Source: Clostridiales bacterium
Lineage (GTDB): Bacteria > Bacillota > Clostridia > Christensenellales > Aristaeellaceae
Assembly: GCA_012728435.1 (NCBI GenBank)
Contig: JAAYFC010000053.1
Location: forward strand, 1,662 to 65,661
Length of the DNA: 64,000 nt
Reading direction: 5' to 3'
The position numbers and the translations under genes are program-made. Positions 3,001-53,031 of this stretch are shown here, one piece after another. The first letter of the stretch is position 1. Every line of letters starts with the position of its first letter. A model generated the notes under the pieces. That model had not been told where the DNA came from, did not search any database, and worked only from the letters and a program-made list of their open reading frames with translations.

Positions 3001-3470
3001 CATCCAATGGTTACAAGCTGACCATCAGTGATGACAAGCTGACCTTCACCAACACCTACGACGGCACATCCACCAACAACCCGGATCCGGATGATCCTGA
3101 GGACACCACCAGCCCAGAGAACCCGAAGACCAAGCAGGTGGACATTACAGCCACCAAGGTTTGGAAGGGTGTTCCTGCAGGGGATAAAGTGCCGCAGATT
3201 AGCTTCCAGCTAACCCAGAACGGCAAGGCCTTTGAAGAGGCCATCACCCTGGAACCAGGGACCACCACAGCCACCTGGACAAAGCTAGCTGCTTATACGC
3301 CTGATGGACAGGATTTCCGTTATGACGTGACGGAGGAGAAGGTACCTGCTGGCTACAGCATGAGAAAGCAGGGCTTTGAAATCACCAATACCTTCGTGAC
3401 AGATAAGCCCACCATCACCGTGCTGCTGGGCACTGGCTTGAACAACAACCTGGGTGACTGTATCGACTGA
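3..3470 (+). CDS. Cna-B / SpaA-type repeat surface adhesin (5' end outside window)
   Basis: The frame is open from the window edge to the TGA at 3468-3470. There are about ten 90-120 aa modules, each opening with TKxW / KKxW and closing with VPxGY...TNTY(D)G, the pattern of Cna-B (prealbumin-fold) stalk domains. Linkers are D/P/T-rich. There is no LPXTG plus hydrophobic tail at the C-terminus. Confidence 0.85.
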   Translation, partial: VSVPDGYTSSGAGNAANDYTITNTYYLLRITGKKLWVDVPEGATKPTVTFRLYRQGTINGSAYTQQVPGSGDKYPTKDNDWTVIWDGVEPKQPNGQPFSFFVREVEFAGGYETTNNDAVVNESNAYSATITNKYTGGTAKSVYATKSWFASASPSGDYPEVEFRLYRHEQGSTEKEQVGDPKVIDAQSEGLGMPGENQTVQWDGLETYSPEAKLYIYSVDEVEVPFGYKKSDPVGYGTESSPFVITNKLQDAQIQLFKFYLDSNNNEMPARDFTFKLEGKGANGVDEFLVAIPGKDNIVVKSGETFTMSSIGESATISGLMVGQPFTVTEMDSEAFDVRNSTGAPPSNWEFDNSRTITPTDIYPIFPSLTTEFINKLVGQLKVTKTVTGLTDEELVSAPAFSFKVTGPEGFDESFTLKHGESKEFDSLLLGEYTVTETKVNGYTTTMNPADGKVTLSLDNRSQTVAVTNNYTGSPREKVVTKKWVTTVMPEGDFPTLMIQVYRRIGSSGNGTPVGDPKELSTGSATTDSITFTGLPFYAPSGAQYTYYVRETTVPNGYTVKYPGAGNAATPVTITNTYDGNTSHEPGVPSGPVSIKATKKWTGLPQNTNGATVELQLVRSGAAFGDLETLTDTGNQTTPHQSVHTWDNLYKFAPDGKMYAYTVEEPTVPNGYTAAVTGDATDGFTVTNTYDGVTTDDDDPTNDTKIEVKATKVFKDTPTGATLPEVTLSLTGAAPQTVEDKTIPSGTATSVEVTWTDLLRFKADSTAFEYGVEESEVPNGYTVAVTGDATDGFTVTNTYDGLGGEEPVVFTAKKMWENIPDGTAADKMPKATITLYQDGEEHGTAKELTATGNGTQEAKWENLLKYAPDGSEFVYTAKETAASNGYKLTVSDDKLTFTNTYDGTSTNNPDPDDPEDTTNPENPKTEYAALTAKKVWANIPEGTESFPKATITLYQDGEEHGTAKELTADGNGEQEAKWENLLKYAPDGTEFVYTAKETAASNGYKLTISDDKLTFTNTYDGTSTNNPDPDDPEDTTSPENPKTKQVDITATKVWKGVPAGDKVPQISFQLTQNGKAFEEAITLEPGTTTATWTKLAAYTPDGQDFRYDVTEEKVPAGYSMRKQGFEITNTFVTDKPTITVLLGTGLNNNLGDCID
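2430..3146. repeat. Tandem ~360-bp duplication (two near-identical Cna-B modules) inside the adhesin gene
   Basis: Units 2430-2789 and 2790-3146 align almost base for base. Both encode KATITLYQDGEEHGTAKELTA.GNG.QEAKWENLLKYAPDG.EFVYTAKETAASNGYKLT.SDDKLTFTNTYDGTSTNNPDPDDPEDTT.PENPKT. A further ~75-85 bp copy pair lies at 2003-2087 and 2331-2405. Confidence 0.9.
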
Positions 3471-5418: not shown

Positions 5419-5720
5419 ACTCCCTTTGTCTGTATTTTATGCTTACAGCATATCAAATATATCATTTAAGCGCAAGCCTTTATCAATCATTCTGAGCGTA
5501 TAATCATCAGAAAATAAGAGAAAACATAATGCATACAAACGGAAAACGCGTGTATCTTCATAGCGGCATCCGGCTTGTCCAATGGTCACAAGGCACACAT
5601 GTAAAAAGAAAAATAGTTATAATGATATATAATGGAATAAAGTGGTATACTAATCATAACAGTATGTGTATGCCCAAAAACCACATGAGGGCTGCATGTC
5701 AACATGAATGGAGGTTAAAC
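5419..5720. promoter_or_regulatory. AT-rich divergent control region between the regulator and the ABC operon
   Basis: This ~300-bp region is clearly AT-richer than its flanks and has several TATAAT-like boxes (GTATAATCAT, GTTATAATGAT, TATATAAT, GGTATACT). An imperfect inverted repeat ATACAAACG-N5-CGCGTGTAT lies at 5533-5555. These are operator candidates only. Confidence 0.45.
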
Positions 5721-7094
5721 ATGAAAGGAAACACCATCAAAAAACTTCTGTCGATGGCTCTGGCGCTGTCCATGTTTCTGTCCTTAGGCTTCGTCTTAAG
5801 CGTTCAGGCGGAGGACATCGGCACCGTCAGAATCCTGACCAACGTAACCGGCGGCAAGGACGAGGCAGAGATGCTGCTGTTCGGTGAGGCTTTTGGCAAA
5901 GGCATCAACGGCACTGTCATCATGGAAAAGCCAACCGCCAACTACGGCGAATACGTGATGAACAAACTCAATGCAGGGGAGCAGTATGATTTGATCTATG
6001 TCGCCCTGCAGGATCTGTACGACATGCAAAAGGACGAAATCCTGACTGATTTGACCGATTGGGTCAAGGCGTCACCCATCCTGGGCGATCCAGACGTTGT
6101 GCCCGAGCAGGAATGGGAGCAGCTGACAATCAATGGCCGCATCTGGGGCGGTTTCAACAAGACTGAAGTGCACAAGCTTCCGGCCATCAACACGGTGATT
6201 GCCAACAAGGCCGGTGTGGATCTGGAAAAGGTAGAGCCCACGCTGGAAGGCTATCACGAATTGTTCAAGCAACTGCAGGCAGTTGGTGGGGAGGGCTTCT
6301 ACGCTTTCAACACCCACATCCCCGGGCTTCATGACCTGCAGCCCTGGTTTGCCGCAGTGGATCTGAAGATGGGCTTTGCCAAGAATGAGGATGGCTCCCT
6401 GTACATCCCCATCGCGACTGAGGCAGCCATCCCCGTATGGGAGTGGTTTGCTCAGCTGTACAAGGAAGGGCTGATGGATCCCGATGCCCTGATTAACACA
6501 ACGGGCGACATGCGCAACAAGATGATGGCTGGACAGACCGGCCTGGTTGTTGACTGGGCCGCCTGGGTAGGCCTTTACAATGTGCGCTCGGGCGAGAATT
6601 ATCCGGATGTGGTCAACGTGATGCCCTTGGGCGGCGTGAAGAATTCCAATGGCGACTTCATGTTCTCCCGCGGGGACCCATCCATCTGGGTTATCCCCAT
6701 CAACGCCAATAACCCCGAAGGGGGCTTCAAGGCACTTGAGTACATGGCAACCCAGGAAGGCGGCCAGCTGCTGTCCATTGGCATTGAAGGGCATGACTAC
6801 AACGTGGTGGACGGCAAGGTGGTCATGACCGAGATTGGCTTAAGCCACGGCAATGATCACGGCGCGCCGGTGCCCACCAGCCGCAAGTATGTAAGCCCTG
6901 TTCCGCTTAACCCCGGTTTTGCGGAGGCGATGGCCTTCCTGCCGTACGCATCTTTGGACATGAGCACTGACATGAACAACACCTACAAGGAAATCGTGGC
7001 CAAGTACGCCACCGAGATCATTATTGGCACCAAGACCGGCGCTGAAGGTGTGGAAGCCATGCAAAAGGAGCTCAAGGAGCGCGGCGTAATCTAA
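5721..7094 (+). CDS. ABC transporter extracellular solute-binding protein (family 1, oligosaccharide type)
   Basis: The ATG at 5721 is preceded by GGAGG. The signal peptide is MKGNTIKKLLSMALALSMFLSLGFVLSVQA. The ~457-aa size and composition are typical of a CUT1 binding protein. The in-frame upstream extension from 5529 has no ribosome-binding site. Confidence 0.85.
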   Translation: MKGNTIKKLLSMALALSMFLSLGFVLSVQAEDIGTVRILTNVTGGKDEAEMLLFGEAFGKGINGTVIMEKPTANYGEYVMNKLNAGEQYDLIYVALQDLYDMQKDEILTDLTDWVKASPILGDPDVVPEQEWEQLTINGRIWGGFNKTEVHKLPAINTVIANKAGVDLEKVEPTLEGYHELFKQLQAVGGEGFYAFNTHIPGLHDLQPWFAAVDLKMGFAKNEDGSLYIPIATEAAIPVWEWFAQLYKEGLMDPDALINTTGDMRNKMMAGQTGLVVDWAAWVGLYNVRSGENYPDVVNVMPLGGVKNSNGDFMFSRGDPSIWVIPINANNPEGGFKALEYMATQEGGQLLSIGIEGHDYNVVDGKVVMTEIGLSHGNDHGAPVPTSRKYVSPVPLNPGFAEAMAFLPYASLDMSTDMNNTYKEIVAKYATEIIIGTKTGAEGVEAMQKELKERGVI

Positions 7095-7126
7095 TCCAAG
7101 CTTCTGACCAAAAGACCGATGATTTC

Positions 7127-7156
7127 GCTGGTCCGCTGAGCCATCAGCGGGCCAGC
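7127..7156 (+). other. Intercistronic stem-loop between the binding-protein and permease genes
   Basis: A 13-bp stem, GCTGGTCCGCTGA / TCAGCGGGCCAGC (one G-U pair), has a 4-nt loop and no T-run. Confidence 0.5.
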
Positions 7157-7251
7157 ATTACAATAATCAGCCTGCTACCTGACTCAAACTGCAGCTTTCG
7201 TCCAGTATATATCGTCTCGTAGAACATCAATTTTAATAGGCCCAGGAGGTC

Positions 7252-8193
7252 GTGATGAGCACCATTCAAGCGCAGCCCCCCCTCACCAGACGGCAGCAAC
7301 ACCGTGCGTGGCGCAGGCGCAAAATGTGGCAGTACAAAAGCATCTATCTGATGATTGTGCCTGTGTTTTTGTATTTTGCCATTTTCACTTTTTACCCGCT
7401 AGGCCTTGGCTTGGTGCAGAGTTTTCAGCGCGTTCCCTTGATTGGCAAGGCCACCTACATCGGCGTGACCAACTACCAGCAGGTGCTCAAGGACCCCATC
7501 TTCATCAAATCCATGACCAACTCCATGCTGGTGGGGACCACTTCGCTGCTCATCAACCTGGCAGTTGCCCTTGTGTTGGCCATCTCTGTCAACGAGGTTC
7601 GAAACCGCTTTAGCAAATCCCTCATTCAAACCGCCACCTTCCTTCCGTATCTATTTTCTTGGACGGTAGTTGGCGGGATGTGGCTGCAGATTTTAGCTCA
7701 CAACGGCATGATGAACAACTTCTTAGCTTTGGTGGGGCTGGACCGCTTGCCATTTTTCACCTCCCCTGTATGGGGGCGTCCGGTCATCCTGTTCACCAAT
7801 GCCTGGAAGCAGGCGGGTTATTTTGTGGTACTCATGTTGGCCAGTGTGGTCAGCATCGATCCAACCATCTATGAAGCGGCCCGCATCGACGGTGCTTCCC
7901 GGATCAAACAAATCAGCTACATCATCATCCCTCAGGTCTGGCCCACCATCAAGACACTTCTTGTTTTAGGGGCAACCGGTGTGCTTCGCAATTTTGACCA
8001 GGTATTGATTATGAACCGCCCGGCGACCAAGGACAGCATCCGGACTTTGCTTTTGTATATCTACGAAGAGGGCATCACAAAACGGCGCATCGGCACCGCC
8101 ACAGCGGCTGCCAGCGTGGTGATGGTGATAACCTTGGTGATTACCGTGGTTGTCAGGCGCATGGCGCGCTACGACCAGGATGCCAGCTATTAA
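7252..8193 (+). CDS. Sugar ABC transporter permease (LplB/MalF-like)
   Basis: AGGAGG lies upstream. The protein has six predicted hydrophobic spans and the ABC TMD loop EAARIDGASRIKQISYIIIP (EAA motif). Confidence 0.9.
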   Translation: MMSTIQAQPPLTRRQQHRAWRRRKMWQYKSIYLMIVPVFLYFAIFTFYPLGLGLVQSFQRVPLIGKATYIGVTNYQQVLKDPIFIKSMTNSMLVGTTSLLINLAVALVLAISVNEVRNRFSKSLIQTATFLPYLFSWTVVGGMWLQILAHNGMMNNFLALVGLDRLPFFTSPVWGRPVILFTNAWKQAGYFVVLMLASVVSIDPTIYEAARIDGASRIKQISYIIIPQVWPTIKTLLVLGATGVLRNFDQVLIMNRPATKDSIRTLLLYIYEEGITKRRIGTATAAASVVMVITLVITVVVRRMARYDQDASY

Positions 8194-8202
8194 GGAGGGG
8201 AC

Positions 8203-9099
8203 ATGAGCACAAAATTGTCTGACAGGCCAGAGAAACTGCCCAAGGCCAACCGGAATGAGCTGCCCCCTTTGGGCCGCGTCATCAACGCGGTATTCCTGGT
8301 CCTGATTTTCTTAATTATGCTTTTGCCCATGGTGAATGTGCTGGCCATTTCGCTGTCCAGCAACGCGGCGTCCCAGGTCTCGGATGTGACCTTATGGCCG
8401 AAGAATTTTTCGACCGAGGGCTATACCTTCATCTGGAACGCCCAGAACCTGGGCAGGGCTTTTGGCAACAGCTCCTTTGTATCAGTGGTGGGCACCCTGT
8501 TCACGGTGTTTATTTCATCCATGGCAGGCTACGCGCTGATTCAGCGCGAACTCCCCTTCCGCAAGGCAATTGCCACAGGCATCTTAATCACCATGATGAT
8601 CCCCGGGGACTTGACCTTGGTGTCCATCTTCTCCCTAAACAAGGCACTGGGGCTCATCGACTCCTACCGGGGGCTGATTCTAAACGGCTTGGTGTCCGCT
8701 TTTTCCATCATGCTGATGCGCAACTATTTCCTCTCAGTGCCCGAATCCCTGGCGGAATCCGGACGGATTGACAACGCCTCGGAGCTGCGCATCTTTTTGT
8801 CCATCTACCTGCCCTTGTCTTTGCCTGGCCTTGCGGCCATCACCTTCCTGGAGTTTATCGGCAAATGGAACTCCTTCATGGTGCCCCTGATTATCACCAC
8901 CAAGCCGCAGCTGTTTACCCTGCCAATTATCCTCCGGCAGCTAACCCAGCCTACAGACTCCACCTCCGGCGTGGTGCAGATTTATGAGAACGCACGCATG
9001 GCGGCCATTGTCATCACCGTCATCCCCTTGCTTGTGCTGTACAGCTTTGCCCAGCGGTTTTTAATTGGCGGCTTGACCTTGGGCGCATCCAAAGGCTAA
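8203..9099 (+). CDS. Sugar ABC transporter permease (LplC/MalG-like)
   Basis: It starts 9 nt after the previous stop. It is a multi-span membrane protein with the EAA-like loop ESGRIDNASELRIFLSIYLP. Confidence 0.9.
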   Translation: MSTKLSDRPEKLPKANRNELPPLGRVINAVFLVLIFLIMLLPMVNVLAISLSSNAASQVSDVTLWPKNFSTEGYTFIWNAQNLGRAFGNSSFVSVVGTLFTVFISSMAGYALIQRELPFRKAIATGILITMMIPGDLTLVSIFSLNKALGLIDSYRGLILNGLVSAFSIMLMRNYFLSVPESLAESGRIDNASELRIFLSIYLPLSLPGLAAITFLEFIGKWNSFMVPLIITTKPQLFTLPIILRQLTQPTDSTSGVVQIYENARMAAIVITVIPLLVLYSFAQRFLIGGLTLGASKG

Positions 9100-12496: not shown

Positions 12497-12692
12497 CAGC
12501 ATCAGGCTTTCAGCTTCAAAAGCCATGCTCCGCTCACCTTAAGGCACAGGGCGTCGTTTGATCAATCAACATCAACCTGTATCAACAGCTGTGTCAGCAC
12601 AAGAGCACTCCGTTCTTGTGCATGGCTGCAGCCTGTGATACCATGATGTCAAACAGTGGTTGAACGCATATTGGTGTAAAGGGGGGAGTGTT

Positions 12693-13709
12693 TTGTCGAA
12701 GAAACAGAAGTTGCCCAAACACATCTACGAACAAGAGCTGGAAAGGCTCCAGCTTGAGTTGGTCTATGTCCAGCGCTGGGCCAATAAAACCAAAGCCAGG
12801 ATTGTGATTATCTTCGAGGGACGGGACGCTGCCGGCAAGGGCGGCGTCATCAAAAGCATTACCGAACGGCTCAACCCCAGAACCTGCCGCACCGTTGCCC
12901 TGCCCGTGCCTACAGAAAAAGAGAAGACCCAATGGTACTTCCAACGCTATGTTGCGCACCTGCCCTCTGCCGGTGAAATTGTCATCTTTGACCGCAGTTG
13001 GTACAACCGCGCCGGGGTAGAGCGCGTGATGGGCTTTTGTACGGAGAAGGAACACGAGGACTTTATGCGCGATTGCCCGGATTTTGAGGCCATGCTGATC
13101 AGGTCCGGCATCATCCTGATCAAGTATTGGTTTTCTGTCAGCGCGCAGGAGCAGAAGCGCCGTTTCCAATCGCGGATTTCGGATCCAAGCAAAAACTGGA
13201 AGATCAGCCCCATGGACATGCAAGCCCGCCAGCACTGGGTGGATTATTCACGGGCCAAGGATACCATGCTGCGCTACACGGATACCAAGCTGTCCCCGTG
13301 GTACATCGTGGATTCGGATGATAAAGCGAAATCAAGAATCAATTGCATCAGCCACCTGCTAACCCTGATTCCCTACGAAATCATCCCCTATGAAAAGATG
13401 GCGCTAAAGCCGCTGCAGCGGGATGATTCCTACATCCGCAAACCCATGTCCGAGCAAACCTGGATACCCGATGTCACCTCTGCGCTGATGCAGGCAGAAG
13501 ATCCTCTAACAGAGCGCAAAAAAGCCAAGAAAAAGCCCAATAAGAAGAAAAAAGCGAAGAAGAAAAGCCAGGAGCAGAGCAAACTGGAAGCACCCAAAGC
13601 TGAAGACCAAGCGGAAGAGCTGGATGGGCAGGCAATCGCAAAAGAGGGGGAAAGCCCCATCCCCTCCATTGAAGAAAACGAAGAGGCGCCTGTTCAAACC
13701 CAGGAGTAA
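12693..13709 (+). CDS. ppk2: Polyphosphate kinase 2 (PPK2) with a charged C-terminal extension
   Basis: The Walker A motif is FEGRDAAGKGG. PPK2 core motifs are present (QWYFQRYVAHLP, IFDRSWYNRAGVERVMGF). The likely start is the TTG at 12693, 4 nt after GGGGGGAG. The ORF track start at 12660 lacks a ribosome-binding site. Confidence 0.9.
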   Translation: MSKKQKLPKHIYEQELERLQLELVYVQRWANKTKARIVIIFEGRDAAGKGGVIKSITERLNPRTCRTVALPVPTEKEKTQWYFQRYVAHLPSAGEIVIFDRSWYNRAGVERVMGFCTEKEHEDFMRDCPDFEAMLIRSGIILIKYWFSVSAQEQKRRFQSRISDPSKNWKISPMDMQARQHWVDYSRAKDTMLRYTDTKLSPWYIVDSDDKAKSRINCISHLLTLIPYEIIPYEKMALKPLQRDDSYIRKPMSEQTWIPDVTSALMQAEDPLTERKKAKKKPNKKKKAKKKSQEQSKLEAPKAEDQAEELDGQAIAKEGESPIPSIEENEEAPVQTQE

Positions 13710-13810: not shown

Positions 13811-13841
13811 GAGCTTGTTCCGCATGGAACAGGCTCTTTTT
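13811..13841 (+). terminator. Intrinsic terminator of ppk2
   Basis: An 11-bp stem, GAGCTTGTTCC / GGAACAGGCTC (one G-U pair), has the loop GCAT and is followed by TTTTT. Confidence 0.8.
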
Positions 13842-13994: not shown

Positions 13995-14279
13995 GTAAGC
14001 GCATATTAATGTTCATATCAAGCGACCTCATGGACCGATTCAATCTCGTGATGTTATATCTTTGCGGCTAGTCAATCCAAACCGCGTCCCCTTCTATCAT
14101 ACCGGAAGAACAACCCCTGAATCCAGGCATACTGCAAACGAAGCTGACGATGGCAGCAGGATTCATGCATCCATCAAAAACAGACGCAATTCCCCGATAT
14201 GCGGACACATCATTTCTGTTAGCCTTTGTCAACTTATCAGAACCTACCACCAAATCCCAGACAAGTCGAAAGGATGTCC

Positions 14280-15005
14280 ATGATGAAAAGATCAAAACTA
14301 CTATGCGGGCTCTTGGCACTGTTGATGGTTTCAGGGATTTTGCTGGCAATGCCTGTGATTGGTGCAGCCACCAGCACAGGAAAGCTCATCAATGTCCCGC
14401 CCACTTTCGCGACCCCGAAGACACAGCCAACGCCAAAGCCCCCGCCCGTTACACTGACGCTGGAAGTGGATAAAGAGGAAGCGCATGTCGGTGAAACCTT
14501 GACATTCACGGCCACGGCAAGAGGGGGCTCCAGGATGCAAAGCATGTGGCTTTGGATTGTACGGGAAAAGGAACGTCTGGAGGTACTGCCTGAAAATCGG
14601 GAAAACAAATGGACGTATGAACCTGAAGAACCGGGCATCTATTGGGGCGTCTTGATTTATAGCGACTCGTTGCAAACGGTGAACAAGAAAGGCAAGGAGA
14701 TCATTGTAAAGCTGCCGCCCACGCCGGAACCTCCGACGCCGGATCCTCCCACACCGGCACCACCCACACCGGAGCCACCGCCTGAAGAGCTGCCCAGTGA
14801 GCCCATGCAGGTCATGAGTCTAACCAAGCATATTTGGATTACACCCATTGAGGATTTCACGCTGTTAGAAGGCACCACCCTGGAGCAGATCCCTGTTGTA
14901 GTAAGCGCAAAAGAAGAGGTCAGCGACATCCAGATGAAGTTCAAGGGGCTGGCGCCGTATCTGAAGTTTGTAAAGAACCCAAGGACGGACGGGCACCTGG
15001 GCTGA
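14280..15005 (+). CDS. Secreted protein; probable N-terminal fragment of the downstream giant surface protein
   Basis: The signal peptide is MMKRSKLLCGLLALLMVSGILLAMPVIGA. It is followed by an Ig-like segment and the proline-rich linker PPTPEPPTPDPPTPAPPTPEPPPEE. The ORF ends inside what looks like the first half of a He_PIG-type repeat. Confidence 0.6.
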   Translation: MMKRSKLLCGLLALLMVSGILLAMPVIGAATSTGKLINVPPTFATPKTQPTPKPPPVTLTLEVDKEEAHVGETLTFTATARGGSRMQSMWLWIVREKERLEVLPENRENKWTYEPEEPGIYWGVLIYSDSLQTVNKKGKEIIVKLPPTPEPPTPDPPTPAPPTPEPPPEELPSEPMQVMSLTKHIWITPIEDFTLLEGTTLEQIPVVVSAKEEVSDIQMKFKGLAPYLKFVKNPRTDGHLG

Positions 15006-15076
15006 AAGGATACATCAGGCAGGCGGAGCCAAAGCTGGTTCGACCTTTGCGCAAGGTAGAACAAGAGGATGGCACC

Positions 15077-18000
15077 ATGATTGATGTGCCAGGTACACGC
15101 GTTCTCTCCAATTGGATGCCCGGAGAGATGGAGAGGGTGTACAGCTTTTACATCAATGCCACCGGCAAGCATCCGGATGGGGAGAAAAGCATTACCATCA
15201 TGGTCAACATGCGTTATCTGCGTGACGCCAATCGCAACGGCATCCCTGATATGTATGAAGAGTTTGCCCAAAATCCTTTTATACTATCAGATATCCCGGA
15301 CATCAGCATCCTCTCGTCCGAAAAACTCCAAAGTATGCACTATTATGCGATGAAAAACCTGGAATTGGAGGGGGATGATGTCAAGTGGCCTGTTCGGTAT
15401 GGCCTGGGCATGCATCCACCCGGTGTCCGTCTGCACGCAAATGCCCAAGGCAATGAAAAAGGGGAACAAGCCAAAATTGACGGTAAAATAAACCTTGAAT
15501 GGGCAGAACATGAGATGTCCAGAAAAGTGCGAGTCTTTTACACTGGCGAAGACAGTGATGGGAAAACTGCCCAAAATGCGATGGATATCAAGGTGCTGCG
15601 CGATGACGACGCGGATGGGATGCCCGATGGGCTCCTTTCCATCGCCGCGATTCCGCCCAGGATGATTGTTGAGGGTGAATCTATCAAGCCAATCCCCATT
15701 ACTGTCCGCAGTAGCTTGCCAGACCCTGTGGAACTGGGAGTTTTTGCAGGTGTCTTCTATATAAAAGACGACCTACCTCACATCGTATTTTTAGGGCCGG
15801 CGGATTATAACTTGGAGCTGGTCAAGCTGTCAGAAGGCCCTTCTTTTGCGCAGGAAAAGGACGTGAAGCTGCATCATTATGAGATCAGGGGCAAGTTCCG
15901 GTTCCCAAGCGACTTAGGTGATTATGGTTGGGGAAAGAATCAATCGATTAGAAGGTTATATTTACAAGCTTCTGCCTGGAGTGGCGAATACAGTAGTGAG
16001 CCGATGGACCTTTCAATCATGGTGTTGCGTTCAGGTGACAAGGAGGACCCAAGGGTCAAGTATCAGTTTGTTCCTATACCCGACATAACGGTCTATCAAA
16101 CGCAGGAAATACCAACCGTCAAACTGCAAATGAAGCAAGGCAACGAGGATATTCGCTTTCTCACCTCTGAATTGCCCAGCGGACTATCCTTCAATAAAGA
16201 AAACAACACAATCACAGGCTCAATTGCGGTTGGCGAATGGCAGGACTGGGAGGCAGACCGGCGCTACAGCGTCACTGCGTATGCTGTTTATAAGCCAGAG
16301 TGGAATAAAACGTACGAGTTTGATGACCCAAAGGTCATCGCAATCGAACAATTCTACATCACCGTTTTACCCGAAGTCATCGATATGGGCAAGGGCGTCG
16401 CGCCCATTGCGGATCAAACTGTGCTTAACCACACAGTCATCAAGCCCATCATGGTGCGGGGTGAACATGACACACAACTGGCAGGTATCAGGCTGGAAGG
16501 GATGCCCGCTGGAATCAGAGGTGGTCCAGGCGGCTTCATTGAAGGCGCGGTCAACATTTATGATTGGGAAGAAGGGGAGAGCATACGCGGTTTTAATGTG
16601 ACAGTGGAAGCTTCATTTAAAACAGTGCCCAAAGCCCATCGGGACGGCGTCCCCACCATCCAAATCGCGGACACGGCTACCACCAGCTTCACCATGCATG
16701 TCCTGCGGGATGAACCAAGCGGCTGGACGGAAGGGGATGAGCTTGTACCGCTTGCAATCCTCAACATCCCCCAACAAGACATGCAAAATGGGGAGGCAAT
16801 TGCCCCCATCATCATTCAGGTGCAGGACATCAGCAACAGCGGTGTTGAGATTCATGCATTAGGCTTGCCCCCAGGACTCGTCCACGAGCCTGAGGGAGAG
16901 ATTCACGGCACACCTGCTGTAGAAGACTGGGGTGAGAATGAGTTCACCCGCATCTACCATATCACCATTAAGGTGATGAACGGACTGGGACAAGAAACCA
17001 GCAGCATCTTTAAAGCAGCAATCTCGCGGGAAGGTGTAACGGACGAGAATCCGCCGATTCCGGATCCGGACGAGGCGCCGCCATCCGAATACGGCGATAT
17101 GCCGCCATCTGAATCGGGCGATATGCCGCCATCTGAATGGGGTGATATGCCCCCTGCGGAAGAACCGCCCGCGGAAGCACCGCCGGCTGAAGAACCGCCC
17201 GCAGAAGCACCGCCGGCTGAAGAACCACCCGCGGAAGTACCACCTGCGGAAGAACCACCCGCGGAAGTACCACCTGCGGAAGAACCCATCGAGATGCCCG
17301 ACGACATACCCGAGGACATCCCGGAAGATCCTGCGGATAACCCACTGGAAGCCCTTCTGCCGCCGCCGGTTGTCATTGCCGCCAAGGAAGGCTTGACCAT
17401 CGCCATTGCCCAGGGCGAGCAAAGCCAGCACCAGGAGAAAATCCTGCATGGCATCTTTGCGGGCTTGAATCAGGCTGGCTACAGACCGGGTGACAACATC
17501 ACCGTTGAGTACTATCTGGCAGATGAAGAGAACCAGACAGTGGGACGCATCGCAGAACAGCTCAGGCAAAAAGACTATGCGCTTGTCATAGCCATTGGTG
17601 AACCCATGGCTCAAACGGCCCAGCAAGCACTTGAGGGACGAAACCCGCTGGTGTTTGTGGATGTGGCAGATCCGGTAGCGGCAGGGCTGACAGGCTCAGT
17701 CACGGGCATTATCGCAAGCCTTGCCCCCCACCAACTGCTCAATGCCATTGGCACAATCCAACCAAACGCCATGTCCATTGCGTACCTGTACGCGCAAGCC
17801 GCGGACTATGCCGCAAACTACATCAAGGAGGCGGAGGGGGATGGCATGCTGGCTCTGGCTGCGGCTGTCACTGATCCTGCCGCCCTGGTACAGGAAGGGA
17901 TGACACTGCTGGAAACCGCCGAATTGTTGATTGTCAACCAGGAGTTTGAGGACGAAGAATCCTTAAAACAGCTCATTGAAGCGGCCAAGGCAAACGGGAA

Positions 18001-18205
18001 GCCTGTATATGGCCTGCATGCAGCCCAGCTTGATTTGGGGGCAGCGGCGGTTATCACTACTGATGCCGCAAACATGGGCGCACGAAGCGGTCTGCTGGCA
18101 GCCCGTATCCTATCAGGCGAGAACGCAGCAAACATCCCCTATGAAACACCGCGCAGGTATCAAATTCTGTTAAACTTCGATATCATACAGGAGCTTGGGC
18201 TCTAA
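15077..18205 (+). CDS. Large surface protein: TSP3-like Ca-binding motifs, about four He_PIG-like Ig repeats, a Pro/Glu-rich linker, and a C-terminal ABC_sub_bind-type solute-binding domain
   Basis: There is no signal peptide at its own N-terminus. DxDxDGxPD motifs are present (DANRNGIPD, DDDADGMPD). The repeated pattern is IPxI...LP.GL.F....G.I.G.......W......Y.(V/I)T(V/I). The C-terminal ~280 aa match the PF04392 pattern (DYALVIAIGEPMAQTAQQA...NPLVFVDVADPVAAGL...AARILSGENAANIPYET...ILLNFDIIQELGL). Confidence 0.7.
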   Translation: MIDVPGTRVLSNWMPGEMERVYSFYINATGKHPDGEKSITIMVNMRYLRDANRNGIPDMYEEFAQNPFILSDIPDISILSSEKLQSMHYYAMKNLELEGDDVKWPVRYGLGMHPPGVRLHANAQGNEKGEQAKIDGKINLEWAEHEMSRKVRVFYTGEDSDGKTAQNAMDIKVLRDDDADGMPDGLLSIAAIPPRMIVEGESIKPIPITVRSSLPDPVELGVFAGVFYIKDDLPHIVFLGPADYNLELVKLSEGPSFAQEKDVKLHHYEIRGKFRFPSDLGDYGWGKNQSIRRLYLQASAWSGEYSSEPMDLSIMVLRSGDKEDPRVKYQFVPIPDITVYQTQEIPTVKLQMKQGNEDIRFLTSELPSGLSFNKENNTITGSIAVGEWQDWEADRRYSVTAYAVYKPEWNKTYEFDDPKVIAIEQFYITVLPEVIDMGKGVAPIADQTVLNHTVIKPIMVRGEHDTQLAGIRLEGMPAGIRGGPGGFIEGAVNIYDWEEGESIRGFNVTVEASFKTVPKAHRDGVPTIQIADTATTSFTMHVLRDEPSGWTEGDELVPLAILNIPQQDMQNGEAIAPIIIQVQDISNSGVEIHALGLPPGLVHEPEGEIHGTPAVEDWGENEFTRIYHITIKVMNGLGQETSSIFKAAISREGVTDENPPIPDPDEAPPSEYGDMPPSESGDMPPSEWGDMPPAEEPPAEAPPAEEPPAEAPPAEEPPAEVPPAEEPPAEVPPAEEPIEMPDDIPEDIPEDPADNPLEALLPPPVVIAAKEGLTIAIAQGEQSQHQEKILHGIFAGLNQAGYRPGDNITVEYYLADEENQTVGRIAEQLRQKDYALVIAIGEPMAQTAQQALEGRNPLVFVDVADPVAAGLTGSVTGIIASLAPHQLLNAIGTIQPNAMSIAYLYAQAADYAANYIKEAEGDGMLALAAAVTDPAALVQEGMTLLETAELLIVNQEFEDEESLKQLIEAAKANGKPVYGLHAAQLDLGAAAVITTDAANMGARSGLLAARILSGENAANIPYETPRRYQILLNFDIIQELGL
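17078..17284. repeat. In-frame tandem repeats: 3 x 24 bp (PPSE.GDM), then 9 x 15 bp (PPAEE/PPAEA/PPAEV)
   Basis: Three 24-mers lie at 17078-17101, 17102-17125 and 17126-17149. Nine consecutive 15-mers cover 17150-17284. Confidence 0.9.
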
Positions 18206-18221: not shown

Positions 18222-18256
18222 CACCGGGGTTGCGACACAAGCAGCCCCGGTTTTTT
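18222..18256 (+). terminator. Intrinsic terminator of the surface-protein gene
   Basis: The stem ACCGGGG / CCCCGGT has a 15-nt loop and is followed by TTTTTT. Confidence 0.75.
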
Positions 18257-18439: not shown

Positions 18440-19456
18440 TCACATGGGGTTGTTCGTGAAATAACGAATCAAGGCCTCGCTGTAGCAGGACATGCCCCAG
18501 TCATTGGGGTACAGGTTCCGGTCATCAAAGGCTTCCGGCACGTGGGGGACGATGCCCCGGCCGTCCAGCGCCGGGATGTCACAGCGCTTGGCCGCATCCA
18601 GCAACGCGTCACAGAAGGCATGAAAGCCGCCAGCACCTTGTGAGGTGTGAATATCCGCACGCCAAAGGGGGGAGATGTACAGCACCCGGGCATTTTTATA
18701 CATGCGCTTGATTTTATGAAAATAGAGTTCGGCTTGCTCAACCGCCTCCTGCACACTCGCGCGCTTGTTCCAGTCATTGGTGCCAAATGCGATGGTGACG
18801 ATGTCCGGTTCAAAAGGCAGCTCCTCATCCAGCAGCAGGTGGTCAAATTGATATCCGCTCAGCCCCGCGTTCCACAGCTCCCAGTCAAAATATCGCGCAA
18901 GCCGCACGGCATAGGTCTGGGAGGGATGCAGCGCGTCATATCCCTGGGTGATGGAATCGCCATAGCACAGCAGCTTCCGCCGGCGGGGAAGGGAGGCGCG
19001 CTCTCTTTTTTCATGAACAGGGATGAAAACGGCGTTTTGGGAGAGGGAGAGGTTCTTTATGCGGACGCGGCTCATATAGGGCAGCCAGATGGTCACGCGG
19101 CGGAAGCCGTCTTTGTTTTCCGGTATCTCTATTTGGATTGTGCCCGAAAGATAAAGCTCGGGCTTTTGGTTGATGCCGCCAATCAGCAGGCCATCCAGGC
19201 ACACATCAATCTGGGCGATGTCCCGGTCCGACATCTCAAAAAGTTCATAGTCAAAGCGCACACTGCGCGCGGTGGTATAAAAATCAAGGCAGATACCGGC
19301 AGCGCATACATAGCGGTGCTTGAAGCGGACATCCTCTTCACGAACAAAATAGCGATACTGCTTGTCCGTCATCCGATAAAAACAGAAGGAGCCGTCTTCC
19401 GCCAACTCCACCAAGCCGCCATGCGTTACGGCGCGCAGTTCGTCAATCCCCAGCAT
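18440..19456 (-). CDS. SGNH/GDSL family hydrolase (probable carbohydrate esterase) with an N-terminal beta-rich domain
   Basis: Block I is LLCYGDSITQGY, block III-like is IAFGTNDW, and the C-terminal region contains DDRNLYPND. The ATG at 19456 is preceded by GAGGGGTGG. The TTG at 19489 in the ORF track is less likely. Confidence 0.8.
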   Translation of the reverse strand: MLGIDELRAVTHGGLVELAEDGSFCFYRMTDKQYRYFVREEDVRFKHRYVCAAGICLDFYTTARSVRFDYELFEMSDRDIAQIDVCLDGLLIGGINQKPELYLSGTIQIEIPENKDGFRRVTIWLPYMSRVRIKNLSLSQNAVFIPVHEKRERASLPRRRKLLCYGDSITQGYDALHPSQTYAVRLARYFDWELWNAGLSGYQFDHLLLDEELPFEPDIVTIAFGTNDWNKRASVQEAVEQAELYFHKIKRMYKNARVLYISPLWRADIHTSQGAGGFHAFCDALLDAAKRCDIPALDGRGIVPHVPEAFDDRNLYPNDWGMSCYSEALIRYFTNNPM

Positions 19457-19647
19457 ATGCCACCCCTCATCAAATTTATCCTGGCACAATCACCTGTCCA
19501 CTGCATGATTCCTTCGTGCCAGGTTCATACACGCATCAAACCACAGGCGGTTTCGTTTCAACCTGTTAACTGCTATACTATCAAAAGAAGATACCCATCA
19601 CAAACGATAAATGAGCGGATGTAAAGCCGGAAAAGAGGCGATGGCCA

Positions 19648-26934: not shown

Positions 26935-27181
26935 ACGCGCAAACAAATGGTTTATCAATACCTGTCCTTGATGCGCAAACCACCCGGTCCATAGAATAAC
27001 CTGTCAAAGCCTCGGGCTAGTAATGATTGTTTAAAATGATACAAACAAACATCAACACCAATTTATCATCGTGACAAACCGCTTTTGCTTGCGTAGCGCC
27101 GGACAAAGAGGTACACTGTAACTGGCAGATGAAAATACCCAGTTAGACGGATTGGCTTGTTTTAATGTAAGGGTGGTGTAT

Positions 27182-28711
27182 ATGAGCACTTCTGACCAGT
27201 ACATCGTGGAGATGAATGGGATCAGCAAGTCCTTTCCAGGCGTAAAAGCCTTGGATGATGTGCGCTTTTCGCTCAAAGCGGGCGAAGTGATGGCGCTGCT
27301 TGGCGAAAACGGCGCAGGCAAATCCACGCTGATGAAGATTTTAAGCGGCGTGTACCAGCGCGATGCCGGCCAGTTGACCGCCTTTGGCCAGGATGTTGAA
27401 GCGAACCTGACACCCCGCAAGGCACAGGACCTGGGCATCGCCATCATCCATCAGGAATTGAACATGTGCCAACACCTGAGTGTGGCGGAGAACATCTTTT
27501 TGGGGCGGGAAATTCTCACAGGCGGCCGCCTCAACACGCGGGAAATGAACAAACAAGCCACAGAAGTGCTGCGCAGCATGAATGTGGATATCGCGCCAAC
27601 CACCATTGTAGGGACCTTGCCGCTTTCCAAGCAGCAGATGGTGGAGATTGCCAAGGCACTTTCCACCAATGCGCGCGTGTTGATTATGGACGAGCCCACC
27701 AGTTCGCTGACCGCCCATGAAATTGAAAATTTATTCACCATCATCCGCCAACTGCGTGACGAGGGGCGAGGCATTGTCTATATCAGCCACCGCCTGGAAG
27801 AACTGCATCACATTGTGGACCGTGTCACCATTTTACGGGATGGGCAGTACATCATCACAATGCCATTTAAAGAGACCACGCTGCCAGAGATTATCAGTTA
27901 CATGGTGGGGCGGGACATTACAGAGAAGTATCCCCGCGTTCCAAGCAGCCGCGGGAAGCTGATTTTTGAAGCGCGCAAGCTTCAGGCTGGTCGTCTGGTC
28001 CGGGATGTATCGCTGAAGGTGTACGAGGGGGAGATCGTTGGCATCGCCGGCCTGGTCGGCGCTGGCCGCACCGAAACCACCCGTGTCATCTTTGGCGCGG
28101 ATTCAAGGGAGGGCGGCCAGTTTTTCCTGGATGACAAGGAGATCCACATCCGCAAGCCAATGGATGCCATCCGCCATGGCGTGGTGCTGGTGCCGGAGGA
28201 CAGGAAGCACGATGGCCTGTGTGTGAAGCTCAGCGTAAAAAGCAACATCGAACTGCCAAATCTGGATTTCCTGTCCAACAAAGCAGGGGTGGTGGACACA
28301 AAGCGCGTAACGCGGGTGGTGAAGGAGGGCATCCAAAGCCTTGGCATCCGCCTGCCGGGGGCGGAGGTGAACGCTGCCAGTTTGTCAGGCGGGAATCAAC
28401 AAAAGGTGGTTGTGGCCAAGTGGCTTGCGCGCAAATCGCGCTTGGTTATTTTTGATGAACCCACCCGCGGCATCGACGTAGCCGCCAAGGTGGAGATTTA
28501 TCACCTGATGAACAAGCTGAAAGAGCAGGGCATTGGCGTCGTATTTGTGTCATCAGAGATGCCCGAGGTGATGGGCATTGCGGACCGTATTGTCGTGATG
28601 TGCGATGGCCGGGTCACCGGCGAGTTGATGCGCAATGAGGCAACCCAGGAGAAGATCATGGCGCTGGCAACACAGTTTGAAAAAAAGCTGGATGTTGCTG
28701 TGGGCCAGTAA
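27182..28711 (+). CDS. Sugar ABC transporter ATP-binding protein (duplicated ATPase, RbsA/MglA type)
   Basis: There are two Walker A motifs (GENGAGKST, GLVGAGRTE), the signature LSGGNQQK, and Walker B motifs LIMDEPT / VIFDEPT. Confidence 0.9.
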   Translation: MSTSDQYIVEMNGISKSFPGVKALDDVRFSLKAGEVMALLGENGAGKSTLMKILSGVYQRDAGQLTAFGQDVEANLTPRKAQDLGIAIIHQELNMCQHLSVAENIFLGREILTGGRLNTREMNKQATEVLRSMNVDIAPTTIVGTLPLSKQQMVEIAKALSTNARVLIMDEPTSSLTAHEIENLFTIIRQLRDEGRGIVYISHRLEELHHIVDRVTILRDGQYIITMPFKETTLPEIISYMVGRDITEKYPRVPSSRGKLIFEARKLQAGRLVRDVSLKVYEGEIVGIAGLVGAGRTETTRVIFGADSREGGQFFLDDKEIHIRKPMDAIRHGVVLVPEDRKHDGLCVKLSVKSNIELPNLDFLSNKAGVVDTKRVTRVVKEGIQSLGIRLPGAEVNAASLSGGNQQKVVVAKWLARKSRLVIFDEPTRGIDVAAKVEIYHLMNKLKEQGIGVVFVSSEMPEVMGIADRIVVMCDGRVTGELMRNEATQEKIMALATQFEKKLDVAVGQ

Positions 28712-28729
28712 GGAAAGGGAGCAGAACAC

Positions 28730-29767
28730 ATGGGGGAAAAATCAAACCAAAAAAGCTGGTGGAGAAGACTGTTTGCCGTACGGGGGATGGGGCAGGTTAT
28801 CACCGTTTTTATTGGCCTGGTCATCCTATGCGTGGTCTTTTATTCTATCAACAAAAACTTCCTGTCCGAGCGCAACATCGCCAATCTCTTAAGGCAGATT
28901 GCGCCTTATTTGATTATCAGTATCGGTCAGGGCTATGTTTTGATCACCGGCAACATCGACCTGTCCATCGGCTCTGTCATCGGCATGAGCACCATGATCT
29001 CCGCCACGCTGATGCCCCACGGGATGGATCCCTGGCTGGCCACCTTGATTACCATGCTGCCCTGCCTTATAACCGGGGCTGTGAACGGGTTCTTGGTAGC
29101 GACCGCCAAACTCCCGCCCTTTATTGCCACGCTGGGCACCATGACCATCGCGCGCGGGGTGGCACAGCTGGTGAACGGCAATATGAACACCGATGCAATT
29201 GGCGCTGCGGCAAATGATTGGCGCAGTGTGCTGTACTATGGCAAGTCTTTGGGCATTTACAATACGTTCTGGATTGCGCTGGGGATCTGGTTTGTTTTCA
29301 ACTTTGTACTGTCTAAAACGCGGACGGGACGGCATATCTACGCAACCGGCAGCAATATTGAGGCAGCCAAGCTGTCCGGTGTGAATGTAGCGGCCATCAC
29401 CACCAAGGCCTATGTGGTCAGCGGCTTTTGCGCGGGCGTGGTTGGTTTGATTTCCAGCGCGCAGGCTGGGATGGGGGCGATGGACGCAGGCACGGGCTAT
29501 GAATTGTTCGCGGTTGCCGCATCCGTCATTGGCGGCATCTCCACCCTAGGCGGTCAGGGCATCCTGCTGGGCAACATCATGGGTGCCAGCGTGTGGGGCG
29601 TTATGTACAACGGCCTGTCGCTGATTGGGGCACCCGTGGCGTGGCGCAATATTGTCGTAGGCTTCATCGTGGTGCTGTCCGTGCTCATTGACGTCATTAT
29701 CCGTGGCGGCGGTTTCAGCAAAGCCCGCTTTAAGGCGGCGTTTCAAAAAGGAAGTCAAGCGCATTAA
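28730..29767 (+). CDS. Sugar ABC transporter permease (RbsC-like)
   Basis: It is a multi-span membrane protein typical of the CUT2 family (IDLSIGSV, ATGSNIEAAKLSGV). Confidence 0.9.
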   Translation: MGEKSNQKSWWRRLFAVRGMGQVITVFIGLVILCVVFYSINKNFLSERNIANLLRQIAPYLIISIGQGYVLITGNIDLSIGSVIGMSTMISATLMPHGMDPWLATLITMLPCLITGAVNGFLVATAKLPPFIATLGTMTIARGVAQLVNGNMNTDAIGAAANDWRSVLYYGKSLGIYNTFWIALGIWFVFNFVLSKTRTGRHIYATGSNIEAAKLSGVNVAAITTKAYVVSGFCAGVVGLISSAQAGMGAMDAGTGYELFAVAASVIGGISTLGGQGILLGNIMGASVWGVMYNGLSLIGAPVAWRNIVVGFIVVLSVLIDVIIRGGGFSKARFKAAFQKGSQAH

Positions 29768-29800
29768 GCGTTTTGATAAAAATAAGGAGGTTTCTGTTTC

Positions 29801-30733
29801 ATGAAAAAGACATTAGCGTTGGTTCTCTGCGTGATGATGATCCTGGGTCTTGCTTCTGCGGTTGCAGCGGAAGAGTTCAACATCTACCTGATTACCATGG
29901 ACTTAATGGACCAGCACTGGGTAAACGGGGACGCCGGCTGTAAGGCGGCGGTCGAAGAGCTGGGCAAGGAAGGCATCAAGGTGAACTACACCTGGGACGC
30001 GCCCACCCAGGGCAAGGATGACGCGGCCCAGATTGAGTCCATCAACAATGCCTACGCCAATAACGCGCAGGCCATCCTGCTGGCGTCCAACGGGCCGGAC
30101 ACCCAGGTGGCAACCATTCAGCAGTACCAAAACGACGGTGTGAAATTTATCTACGTGGACAGCCCTGCCAACACCCCGGCGGAGCAGATACTGGCTACCG
30201 ACAACAAGGAAGCCGGCAGAATCGCTGGTGTGGAAATGCTCAACAAACTGAAAGAAAATGGCATTGAAGAAGGCAAAATCGGCATCGTGAACGTCAACTC
30301 CTCCACCACATCCACGCAGCTGCGTGAAGAGGGCTTCCGTTCCGCCTTTGAAGGCAGCAAGTTTGAAATTCTGGAAACACAGTATGGCGAGGGCCAGGTG
30401 ACCGCGTCCCAGTCCATTGCTGAAAACTACATCACCGAAGGCGTCGTAGGCATCTTTGGCTGCAACGAGGGCAGCACCACCGGAACTGGCAACGCCATTA
30501 AGGAAGCGGGCAGCGCTGTCATCGGCGTGGGCTTTGACCAGTCCGACGCCATTTTGCAGCTTGTGAAAGAGGGCGCGCTACTGGCCACCATGGCACAAAA
30601 CCCCTATGTGATGGGATACGAAGGCATCATGAGCGCTGTGAAGGTGCTAAAGGGTGAGGAGATTCCGGAAGACCAGAAGCTCTTTGACACCGGCGTCACC
30701 GTCGTCAACAAAGCCTTCCTGGAAGCAGAATAA
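29801..30733 (+). CDS. Sugar ABC transporter substrate-binding protein (RbsB-like, PBP1)
   Basis: It has a signal peptide and a ~310-aa type I periplasmic-binding fold. AAGGAGG lies upstream. Confidence 0.9.
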   Translation: MKKTLALVLCVMMILGLASAVAAEEFNIYLITMDLMDQHWVNGDAGCKAAVEELGKEGIKVNYTWDAPTQGKDDAAQIESINNAYANNAQAILLASNGPDTQVATIQQYQNDGVKFIYVDSPANTPAEQILATDNKEAGRIAGVEMLNKLKENGIEEGKIGIVNVNSSTTSTQLREEGFRSAFEGSKFEILETQYGEGQVTASQSIAENYITEGVVGIFGCNEGSTTGTGNAIKEAGSAVIGVGFDQSDAILQLVKEGALLATMAQNPYVMGYEGIMSAVKVLKGEEIPEDQKLFDTGVTVVNKAFLEAE

Positions 30734-52050: not shown

Positions 52051-53031
52051 ATGAAAAGGTTTTTATCCCTCACGCTGACACTGATGATAGCGCTTGCACT
52101 ATTGCCAAACGTCGCATTGGCTGCGGAGACCATCAAGATTGAAGTCGTCAACAAGGAGTTTCGCTTCTCGGGCGTTCATGCCAGTGAGCATCTGTTCACC
52201 ATCGAGAACATCAGCGATGCTGATGTTGACGTGGTCATCACCGTGTATGATCAGGCGGACAAAAAGGTTGTTGAGACCATGAACTACACCATCATGAAGG
52301 GTGACGGGCCGCAAATGGTGCTGGCCAGCGTCTACAAACCCCTCACCCACAATGGAGAGGTGAATACCTACAGCTACAAAATCGCGCCAAACACCGGCAA
52401 CGCGAAGTATCTGTACTACGCGCAGAAACTCACCATCGTCAAAGAAAATGGTGTGGAAACCCACTACTATGACCAGTATACCAACACAATTTATCCCAGG
52501 AACACTGTTTCTTCCTTTGGCCCGCACTTCCGTGATGTGACCCCGGCTTTGACAGACAAATGGTACATGTTTACCCCCATTGACCTTTCGATTCAAGGCC
52601 GACAAACATTTATCCTTGCAGCCAGCAATATCTATGAAGTGGGCGAGGTCTATGTGGATGTCAACCAGGACACCGTGGTCGTCAGCTACCGGATGTTCCA
52701 TGATGGGAAGCAGGGCTTTAGCACCGAAACGCTCAGTGAATTCATCACCTTCTACAACTCCTATGCCGATGTGGACATCGTGGAGCCAGAGGAGATGAAG
52801 GAGCCCAGCATGTATGCCTTCAACCAACCCATCAGCATCCTCAATCACTTTGGTGGGGATACCAATGTGCTGATGTTCATCCGCAACCGCATTACCTACA
52901 AACGCTTCCCTACGCCTAAGACCGAATACGTCCGCTTTTGGGAAAACACGCCGGAAAACAAGGCCCACCGTGAGCGCATGTTGGAGTTCATGGATCCCAT
53001 TATGACGGTAGACCTGGGAAATAAACACTGA
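52051..53031 (+). CDS. Hypothetical secreted protein
   Basis: AAAGGAG lies upstream. The signal peptide is MKRFLSLTLTLMIALALLPNVALA. I recognise no family. A strong terminator follows. Confidence 0.7.
   Translation: MKRFLSLTLTLMIALALLPNVALAAETIKIEVVNKEFRFSGVHASEHLFTIENISDADVDVVITVYDQADKKVVETMNYTIMKGDGPQMVLASVYKPLTHNGEVNTYSYKIAPNTGNAKYLYYAQKLTIVKENGVETHYYDQYTNTIYPRNTVSSFGPHFRDVTPALTDKWYMFTPIDLSIQGRQTFILAASNIYEVGEVYVDVNQDTVVVSYRMFHDGKQGFSTETLSEFITFYNSYADVDIVEPEEMKEPSMYAFNQPISILNHFGGDTNVLMFIRNRITYKRFPTPKTEYVRFWENTPENKAHRERMLEFMDPIMTVDLGNKH

Follow-up and report, generated by a model that had tools for sequence, protein, structure and literature searches.

An orphan PF04392 solute-binding domain with a remodelled ligand pocket at the C-terminus of large, predicted secreted proteins from uncultured bacteria

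Only three ligands are known for the solute-binding proteins of Pfam family PF04392, namely L-Trp, L-Tyr and L-Phe (PMC10443332), and the three structures grip the amino and acid groups in one shared way (PMC6816091). In TrpX of S. suis, whose gene is T-box regulated, the conserved ligand contacts are T108, A127, T129, D152 and N233 (PMC9382623). In CD0873 of C. difficile, specificity is set by E263 and Y279, and this protein has also been reported as an adhesin (PMC6816091). CD0873 (PDB 6HNI/6HNJ/6HNK) is a stand-alone tyrosine-binding (L-Tyr) lipoprotein of ~340 amino acids (aa) with the class I/cluster B two-lobed fold, encoded in the transporter operon of an ATP-binding cassette (ABC) importer. 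Here we describe a PF04392 domain in a different setting. It lies within a 64,000-nucleotide (nt) stretch, hereafter the window, of contig JAAYFC010000053.1 from an NCBI metagenome-assembled genome named 'Clostridiales bacterium'. The domain shares its family and fold with CD0873, but it forms the C-terminal module of a predicted secreted protein of ~1310 aa, has no transporter beside it and differs at the ligand residues. The encoding gene (14274-18205, plus strand, ~1310 codons) is a single one that is split into two frames by a 1-nt frameshift at ~15001.

The last 278 codons of the gene (17369-18202) match the PF04392 profile (ABC_sub_bind) with an E-value of 1e-28 and 100.9 bits, against a gathering cut-off of 25.9 bits and with profile positions 3-278 of 293 covered. 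An AlphaFold2 model of this region, built on an 82-sequence alignment, is two-lobed with an alternating beta-alpha pattern and has a mean predicted local distance difference test score (pLDDT) of 91.9. When the model was compared with the PDB using Foldseek, the solved PF04392 proteins ranked first, led by the open form of CD0873 (6HNJ, template modelling score (TM) 0.87) and followed by 6HNI, 3LKV and 3LFT, with sugar-binding proteins and LacI-type folds far behind. CD0873 is also the best PDB sequence match (E 1.6e-15), and TrpX/SP1069 (3LFT, L-Trp) and VC_1101 (3LKV, L-Phe) belong to the same family and have the homologous fold. The best NCBIfam match is the TrpX equivalog NF041285 (ABC_SBP_TrpX), at only 92.6 bits against a cut-off of 390. 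The binding-protein fold at 17369-18202 is real and far beyond a chance match. An earlier reading of this DNA, made from the letters alone (the sequence-only reading), had assigned the last ~280 aa to a PF04392-type binding protein and suggested a profile search of 17370-18205 for the fold, and both the search and the model bear the assignment out.

17369-18205, plus strand: PF04392-type class I (cluster B) solute-binding-protein fold with a remodelled pocket, including the stop codon (Pfam, AlphaFold2, Foldseek)

In the reconstructed protein the domain follows the Pro-rich spacer and begins near residue 1033, and no lipobox or lipoprotein signal of its own is found directly ahead of it. At its other end the window protein stops at ...QELGL (18150-18205), ~11-14 residues short of the conserved tail of its homologues, I-x-PP-x-G-x-MP..F. 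A hidden tail in another frame past 18205 was considered and rejected, as no alternative frame encodes it.

The relatives of the domain were collected by an exhaustive search of 1.84 billion representatives, which returned 3653 PF04392 relatives at E <= 0.001. The closest tier (33-42% identity) consists of proteins of 815-1358 aa that have a single C-terminal PF04392 domain and the same N-terminal architecture as the window protein, together with some fragments. A middle tier carries 2-4 tandem PF04392 domains and also contains P0092 (P numbers denote homologous proteins), a permease fused to two binding domains. In many homologues (P0008, P0011-P0031 and others) the 2-4 tandem domains follow directly after the signal sequence. 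The last tier is made up of ordinary stand-alone proteins of ~330 aa with 26-30% identity. Homologue searches with the full open reading frame (ORF) and with the N-terminal region gave 2 matches and 1 match, respectively, and it was the exhaustive search from which the family emerged. When clustered at 50% identity, the proteins of 815-1358 aa that end in the domain form at least 12 clusters, and the domain is found in every family member while the number of repeats ahead of it varies. In a neighbour-joining tree of 108 domains, these fused domains were monophyletic in 39 of 40 bootstraps, and two residues are diagnostic for the clade: G77 and K211 are present in 100% of its members vs 14% and 7% of stand-alone proteins. 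The tree points to a single origin for this fusion of a PF04392 domain to a beta-sandwich repeat protein.

The family is small, unnamed and known from metagenomes of uncultured bacteria only. Clade clusters with visible source names are all called 'hypothetical protein'. No relatives were detected in species-representative genome contigs in two scans, one with the single protein and one with the family alignment, and this absence carries little weight because few peptide patterns were used. In the literature searched for PF04392 and for binding-protein/Ig-like/adhesin fusions (Ig, immunoglobulin), no description of the architecture was found; the sequence-only reading likewise knew of none.

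The recurrence of the architecture also bears on whether the fusion could be an assembly artefact, produced by a false join, within the repetitive Pro-rich stretch, of an ordinary binding-protein gene and the gene for a surface protein. The junction is indeed a tandem repeat, and the scaffold of an independent ENA contig of this locus, L004, has a gap exactly there. Against this, at least 12 independent clusters, drawn from different samples, share the colinear architecture, and in each of them the ORF runs through without interruption. The fused domains group in a clade of their own, marked by G77 and K211, and a lipoprotein signal is lacking at the domain start. Because the architecture recurs across samples, a chimera is excluded for practical purposes, and we consider this explanation extremely improbable.

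The ligand pocket was compared across 154 stand-alone domains, 165 tandem domains and 15 domains of the fused clade, aligned together with the three PDB sequences. By spacing and alignment, the TrpX contacts correspond to T114, A133, S135, D158 and N239 of CD0873, and these residues are 71-92% conserved in stand-alone proteins. At T114, A133, S135, D158, N239, E263 and Y279 the window protein carries E, D, A, S, F, H and A, respectively, its contact residues being numbered E78, D98, A100, S117 (A116 in the pairwise alignment) and F193. Replacement extends to every residue with which TrpX/CD0873-type proteins hold the alpha-amino group, the alpha-carboxylate and the aromatic side chain. None of the 15 clade members retains T114, S/T135, D158 or N239, and A133 is retained once. 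Additional polar positions that are conserved family-wide are gone from the clade as well (the H of the beta1 loop, E187, N189 and S190); structural Gly, Pro and Leu positions are retained. When alignment columns were ranked by entropy, the contact columns of stand-alone proteins were among the most conserved (6-24%) vs average in the clade (41-54%). Tandem PF04392 domains retain the contacts (98% for the T114 equivalent and 84% for the N239 equivalent). A newly conserved clade pocket was considered and rejected: the clade-invariant residues (G77, K211, several Leu and D169) look structural, and the pocket columns are averagely conserved. The canonical pocket is dismantled in the clade, and no new, uniformly conserved one has taken its place.

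Transport genes were examined at the window locus and at six other loci of the family. Within ~8-9 kb downstream and ~5 kb upstream of the gene there are no transporter genes. The only importer genes in the window are a CUT1-type binding protein with two permeases (5529-9099) and a CUT2 system, so that the statement of the sequence-only reading that no transporter is nearby holds for these flanking kilobases.

27152-30733, plus strand: complete CUT2 importer, with a 519-aa double ATPase, a 345-aa BPD_transp_2 permease and a 310-aa Peripla_BP_4 binding protein

The CUT2 permease is the nearest one of the type usual for PF04392 proteins, and it is already paired with its own binding protein. At none of the seven loci (the window, L003, L010, L013, L014, L015 and L016) is there an adjacent BPD_transp_2 or ABC_tran gene, and the neighbours at the six other loci are unrelated and non-conserved. 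As a positive control, the gene of the stand-alone protein P0163 has both a BPD_transp_2 gene and an ABC_tran gene immediately downstream. The earlier proposal that the domain was recruited outside a transporter operon is therefore supported by the 0 of 7 loci with an adjacent permease or ATPase and by the control, which has both. An Rfam search found no T-box or any other Rfam family in the window, and hence no T-box or riboswitch lies upstream of the gene. In comparison with TrpX and VC_1101, the window domain thus lacks the conserved ligand residues, a trpYZ-like permease and ATPase, and a T-box leader. Because the contact residues have all been replaced and transport partner genes are not adjacent at any of the seven loci, the domain is not an aromatic-amino-acid transport receptor.

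A broader version of the transport idea, also raised by the sequence-only reading, is a tethered scavenging receptor in which the domain captures a small nutrient for delivery to an ABC importer whose genes lie elsewhere in the genome. In the confident model both scaffold and hinge are preserved, and tethered or tandem PF04392 domains do exist, as in P0092 and the many proteins with 2-4 copies. The window protein differs from these and from permease fusions of the GlnPQ/OpuA type, although all have a binding domain within a larger polypeptide: in the described systems it is fused to a permease or placed right after a lipoprotein or signal sequence, and the ligand residues are kept. Here every published contact is lost, and the clade shows no constraint on these columns. 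A partner permease or ATPase is found at 0 of 7 loci, and the sole BPD_transp_2 permease of the 64-kb window sits in the CUT2 system with its own binding protein. Moreover, with the N-terminus as the tether, a stalk of ~1000 aa and a spacer of 110 aa would hold the domain at a long distance from the membrane; the signal peptide also looks cleavable. A scavenging receptor is consequently improbable, and the earlier suggestion of aromatic amino acids as ligands is not supported, given the substituted contact residues and their averagely conserved columns.

In intact homologues, the order of parts is a signal peptide, an Ig-like domain, cadherin-like/He_PIG beta-sandwiches, a Pro-rich acidic spacer and the C-terminal PF04392 domain. 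The corresponding features of the window gene ahead of the domain are as follows.

14274-15005, plus strand: 5' part of the gene, frame A, taken from the ORF listing; aligns with the N-termini of the intact homologues P0001 and P0002 and ends at the frameshift-created TGA
14274-14369, plus strand: Sec signal peptide, MSMMKRSKLLCGLLALLMVSGILLAMPVIGAA followed by TS, with the cleavage point between them
~14448-14714, plus strand: Ig-like domain within the frame A part
14715-14804, plus strand: Pro-rich linker after the Ig-like domain, followed by the start of the first beta-sandwich repeat
15006-17038, plus strand: frame B, about six tandem all-beta (cadherin-like/He_PIG-like) domains (AlphaFold2, Foldseek, colinear with P0001, P0002 and P0009)
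15224-15250, plus strand: motif DANRNGIPD (Dx[DN]x[DN]GxxD type) at a domain boundary, conserved in all 8 full-length members in a motif scan
15602-15628, plus strand: second copy of the motif, DDDADGMPD, at a predicted domain boundary (RD-x-[ND]-x-[ND]-G-x-x-D type, conserved in full-length members)
16163-16222, plus strand: the sole Pfam He_PIG (PF05345) match, 31.9 bits vs a cut-off of 24, profile positions 43-64 of 96, core LPSGLSF..NTITGS
17039-17368, plus strand: acidic Pro-rich spacer of ~110 aa, with PPSE.GDM three times and then PPAEE/PPAEA/PPAEV repeats

For residues 1-674 of the product of the downstream ORF (15047-18205), AlphaFold2 predicted about six all-beta sandwiches with a mean pLDDT of 68.8, and of ~70-88 in most 10-residue blocks of the sandwiches. 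The best Foldseek matches of this model are protocadherin/cadherin ectodomains (E ~1e-17) and the staphylococcal adhesin SraP, whose cadherin-like module is also the sole PDB sequence match of the N-terminal region, a weak one (E 0.023). The sequence-only reading had called these domains He_PIG repeats. Beta-sandwiches are predicted, ~six of them and cadherin-like, but the Pfam match is single and partial, covering 22 of 96 positions, and of eight homologues only one is above threshold (P0042 at 33.7, P0002 at 21.5, P0001 at 18.3 and no match for the others). 'He_PIG-like/cadherin-like repeats' is thus a fair label, and 'He_PIG repeats' overstates the sequence evidence. The Dx[DN]x[DN]GxxD motifs resemble Ca2+-binding loops and, if they bind Ca2+, would stiffen the stalk. 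The Pro/Glu-rich linker noted earlier ahead of the domain corresponds to the acidic Pro-rich spacer, which is encoded by tandem DNA repeats of 24 nt (17077-17151) and 30 nt (17156-17286). In L004, the spacer (2296-2500) contains a run of N and extra repeat copies, so its repeat number in the window may be collapsed or strain-variable.

How such a protein would be held at the cell is a separate matter. Each of the eight full-length members has a single hydrophobic segment, the signal peptide at the N-terminus, which ends in a small-residue (AxA-like) cleavage motif; neither a C-terminal LPXTG motif nor a second hydrophobic segment was found. A lipoprotein anchor was considered and rejected: the signal peptide has a Cys at residue 11, but this lies too early and lacks a lipobox context, and a weak LPAC occurs in P0010 only. 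If the proteins are cell-bound, something other than an LPXTG motif or a transmembrane segment must therefore retain them. One candidate is the C-terminal domain itself, which would sit close to the membrane, docked for example onto a membrane protein or wall component, with the spacer crossing the wall and the repeats and the Ig-like domain exposed. Besides the cleavable signal peptide and the lack of other anchors in all members, this explanation draws on the presence of the domain in every member while the repeat count varies, and on the position of an invariant C-terminal module after a Pro/Glu-rich region of 40-150 aa. In Gram-positive surface proteins, a wall-spanning region of the Pro-rich type precedes the anchor, and the arrangement here resembles it. 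However, a Pro-rich stretch is also present at the N-terminus after the signal peptide, which makes the polarity argument symmetric, no conserved partner gene is found at any examined locus, and we know of no precedent for a binding-protein fold serving as an anchor. We regard envelope retention by the domain as a serious alternative but rather unlikely, though less so than nutrient scavenging.

The reading that we favor is that the gene product would be one Sec-secreted protein of ~1310 aa, belonging to a monophyletic family, in which the PF04392 scaffold stays two-lobed but appears to have been removed from ABC transport. The C-terminal domain may then act as a non-transport recognition module for a partner, a surface or a non-amino-acid ligand, held by the flexible spacer at the end of a semi-rigid stalk of beta-sandwiches, so that the protein would be adhesin-like and not an uptake receptor. 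A re-purposed binding or adhesion module on a stalk is the most likely role in our analysis, at about even confidence. An adhesion role is favored because CD0873 has been reported as an adhesin and because the cadherin-like modules of SraP serve as a projecting stalk. SraP of S. aureus (PDB 4M00-4M03) likewise combines tandem cadherin-like beta-sandwiches with a separate binding domain, the similarity being weak; it differs in being LPXTG-anchored and in having a legume-lectin-like module on the distal N-terminal side in place of a C-terminal binding-protein fold.

The use of the periplasmic-binding-protein fold outside transport is familiar from the LacI/GalR repressors, LuxP-LuxQ and the Venus-flytrap modules of receptors. 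As in these proteins, several of which are distant Foldseek matches of the window domain, the fold would have been recruited as a recognition module. They are sensors or regulators with an output domain, whereas the window domain is joined to extracellular beta-sandwiches and has no output domain. Both the use of binding-protein folds outside transport and the moonlighting of binding proteins as adhesins are already known; what is new here is an orphan PF04392 clade with a remodelled pocket in this architecture. More tentatively, the PF04392 fold may have been converted once into a non-transport extracellular module, either a receptor for a non-amino-acid ligand or macromolecular surface or a so far unrecognised, non-covalent envelope-retention domain. 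In either case, these large secreted or surface proteins of uncultured anaerobic Clostridia would form a new class.

Several observations weigh against this picture. The variable pocket positions could equally reflect a degenerate scaffold without binding function. The model of the N-terminal stalk was built on a 4-sequence alignment and has the lower pLDDT of 68.8. Genomic context was assessed at the scale of contigs, and a partner transporter may be encoded elsewhere in the genomes. The earlier description of the domain as displayed on a long stalk is plausible, given the cadherin-like sandwiches and the ~110-aa spacer, and either end may face outward. None of the parts is a recognisable cell-attachment module, and the protein may be released from the cell, in which case 'stalk display' would be meaningless. 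Finally, the window copy is frameshifted and may have no function in this genome.

The frameshift affects what the gene is taken to be. The sequence-only reading missed that the ORF 15047-18205 (plus strand, 1052 aa) is only the 3' part of a frameshifted, possibly dead gene. This ORF is devoid of a signal peptide of its own, and its frame stays open far upstream of its first start codon. The preceding ORF (14226-15005), in a different frame, encodes the Sec signal peptide, the Ig-like domain and the Pro-rich linker. The intact homologues P0001 (1358 aa) and P0002 (1172 aa) both align with the two ORFs.

14997-15005, plus strand: frameshift site CTG GGC TGA; lengthening the G-run by one G restores ...DGHLG-LKGYIRQ...

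With one G inserted at CTGGG^CTGAAA (~15001), the product is 1310 aa long and colinear with intact P0001, P0002 and P0009. The corrected junction reads GHLG-LKGYIRQ in the window vs GELGYKGSIKN in the homologues, and the restored segment fits their conserved G-x-LGY-x-G-x-I. In the NCBI annotation the locus is entered as two hypothetical proteins, GXZ04_03320 (NLX82831.1; 14283-15005, 240 aa) and GXZ04_03325 (NLX82832.1). The independent contig L004 has 36 differences in 10.9 kb elsewhere and 100% identity over the 2.3 kb spanning the frameshift site, at ~3.8x coverage and with its scaffold gap within the Pro-rich repeat. Because the same sequence occurs in this second assembly, the frameshift is probably real in the population rather than a one-off error. 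An intact allele was not found in metagenome contigs, either by a scan with the family alignment or with an exact DNA pattern allowing GGG or GGGG.

One possibility is that the gene is a pseudogene here: the shift at ~15001 would uncouple the signal peptide from the remaining 1050 codons, and nothing functional would be made. In keeping with this, the shift falls within a beta-sandwich domain and within a conserved motif, the two assemblies agree at the site despite 36 differences elsewhere, the NCBI annotation has two separate proteins, and the protein ends ~12 residues ahead of the ends of its homologues. On the other hand, both frames are otherwise stop-free over 0.7 and 3.2 kb, and the lesion must therefore be recent, an error, or bypassed; the coverage of L004 is only ~3.8x; and the shift site coincides with a stop codon next to a predicted hairpin (z = -2.63), making -1 recoding conceivable, if unproven. 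A pseudogene is accordingly a serious contender, to which we give slightly less than even weight. Barring a recoding bypass or a sequencing error common to two assemblies, the window copy is probably inactive.

The frame A stop codon coincides exactly with the shift site (CTG GGC TGA). A hairpin of ~80 nt is predicted within 14997-15090, starting 3 nt past the TGA and 6 nt past the GGC codon, with a free energy of -28.3 kcal/mol; 3 of 200 shuffled sequences were equally stable (z = -2.63), for a fold window that was picked after the fact. There is also a Shine-Dalgarno-like AAGAGGA 7 nt ahead of the ATG at 15077. The stop-coincident shift, the hairpin and this site could reflect recoding, re-initiation or coincidence. 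Programmed -1 frameshifting was not adopted as an explanation: there is no canonical slippery heptamer, the homologues are unshifted, and the hairpin window is post hoc. Expression of the window copy via -1 frameshifting at CTG GGC TGA is the less likely outcome.

The gene is bounded by terminator-like hairpins on both sides and is the last and apparently only cistron of its transcription unit. The convergent esterase that the sequence-only reading had placed next to it is confirmed as a GDSL esterase.

12660-13709, plus strand: PPK2 polyphosphate kinase gene, the upstream neighbor
13811-13836, plus strand: terminator-like hairpin after the PPK2 gene (11-bp stem, T-tail), the upstream boundary of the transcription unit
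18223-18251, plus strand: intrinsic-terminator-like hairpin (11 bp, 8 of them GC, T-tail), 18 nt past the stop
18440-19489, minus strand: convergent GDSL esterase gene, the next gene

The PPK2 protein has a C-terminal extension of ~100 aa, Lys-rich (KKAKKKPNKKKKAKKK) and then Glu-rich, which is unusual for PPK2. About 11 kb upstream of the gene, the ORF 9-3470 (plus strand, 1153 aa) encodes eight Cna_B domains together with SpaA/DUF5979 prealbumin-like domains; its product looks like a typical Gram-positive surface protein of the pilin/adhesin type. The listed GTG start of this ORF is 8 nt from the window edge, and the true start may lie upstream. At 52051-53031 (plus strand), a 326-aa ORF without a Pfam match at E <= 1e-5 overlaps a 309-aa ORF on the opposite strand (52099-53028).

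For the present these findings have limited practical impact, as the family is small and metagenome-only and the window copy is frameshifted. Their broader meaning concerns how binding-protein matches are read. Solute-binding proteins are normally annotated as transporter components, and the family described here shows that a confident PF04392 match can be an orphan, pocket-remodelled module, for which the automatic label 'ABC transporter substrate-binding protein' would therefore be wrong. If the domain binds a surface or polymer, or retains the proteins on the cell, it would be a new module in the toolkit of Gram-positive surface proteins and would illustrate how a binding-protein scaffold can evolve a non-nutrient specificity in nature.

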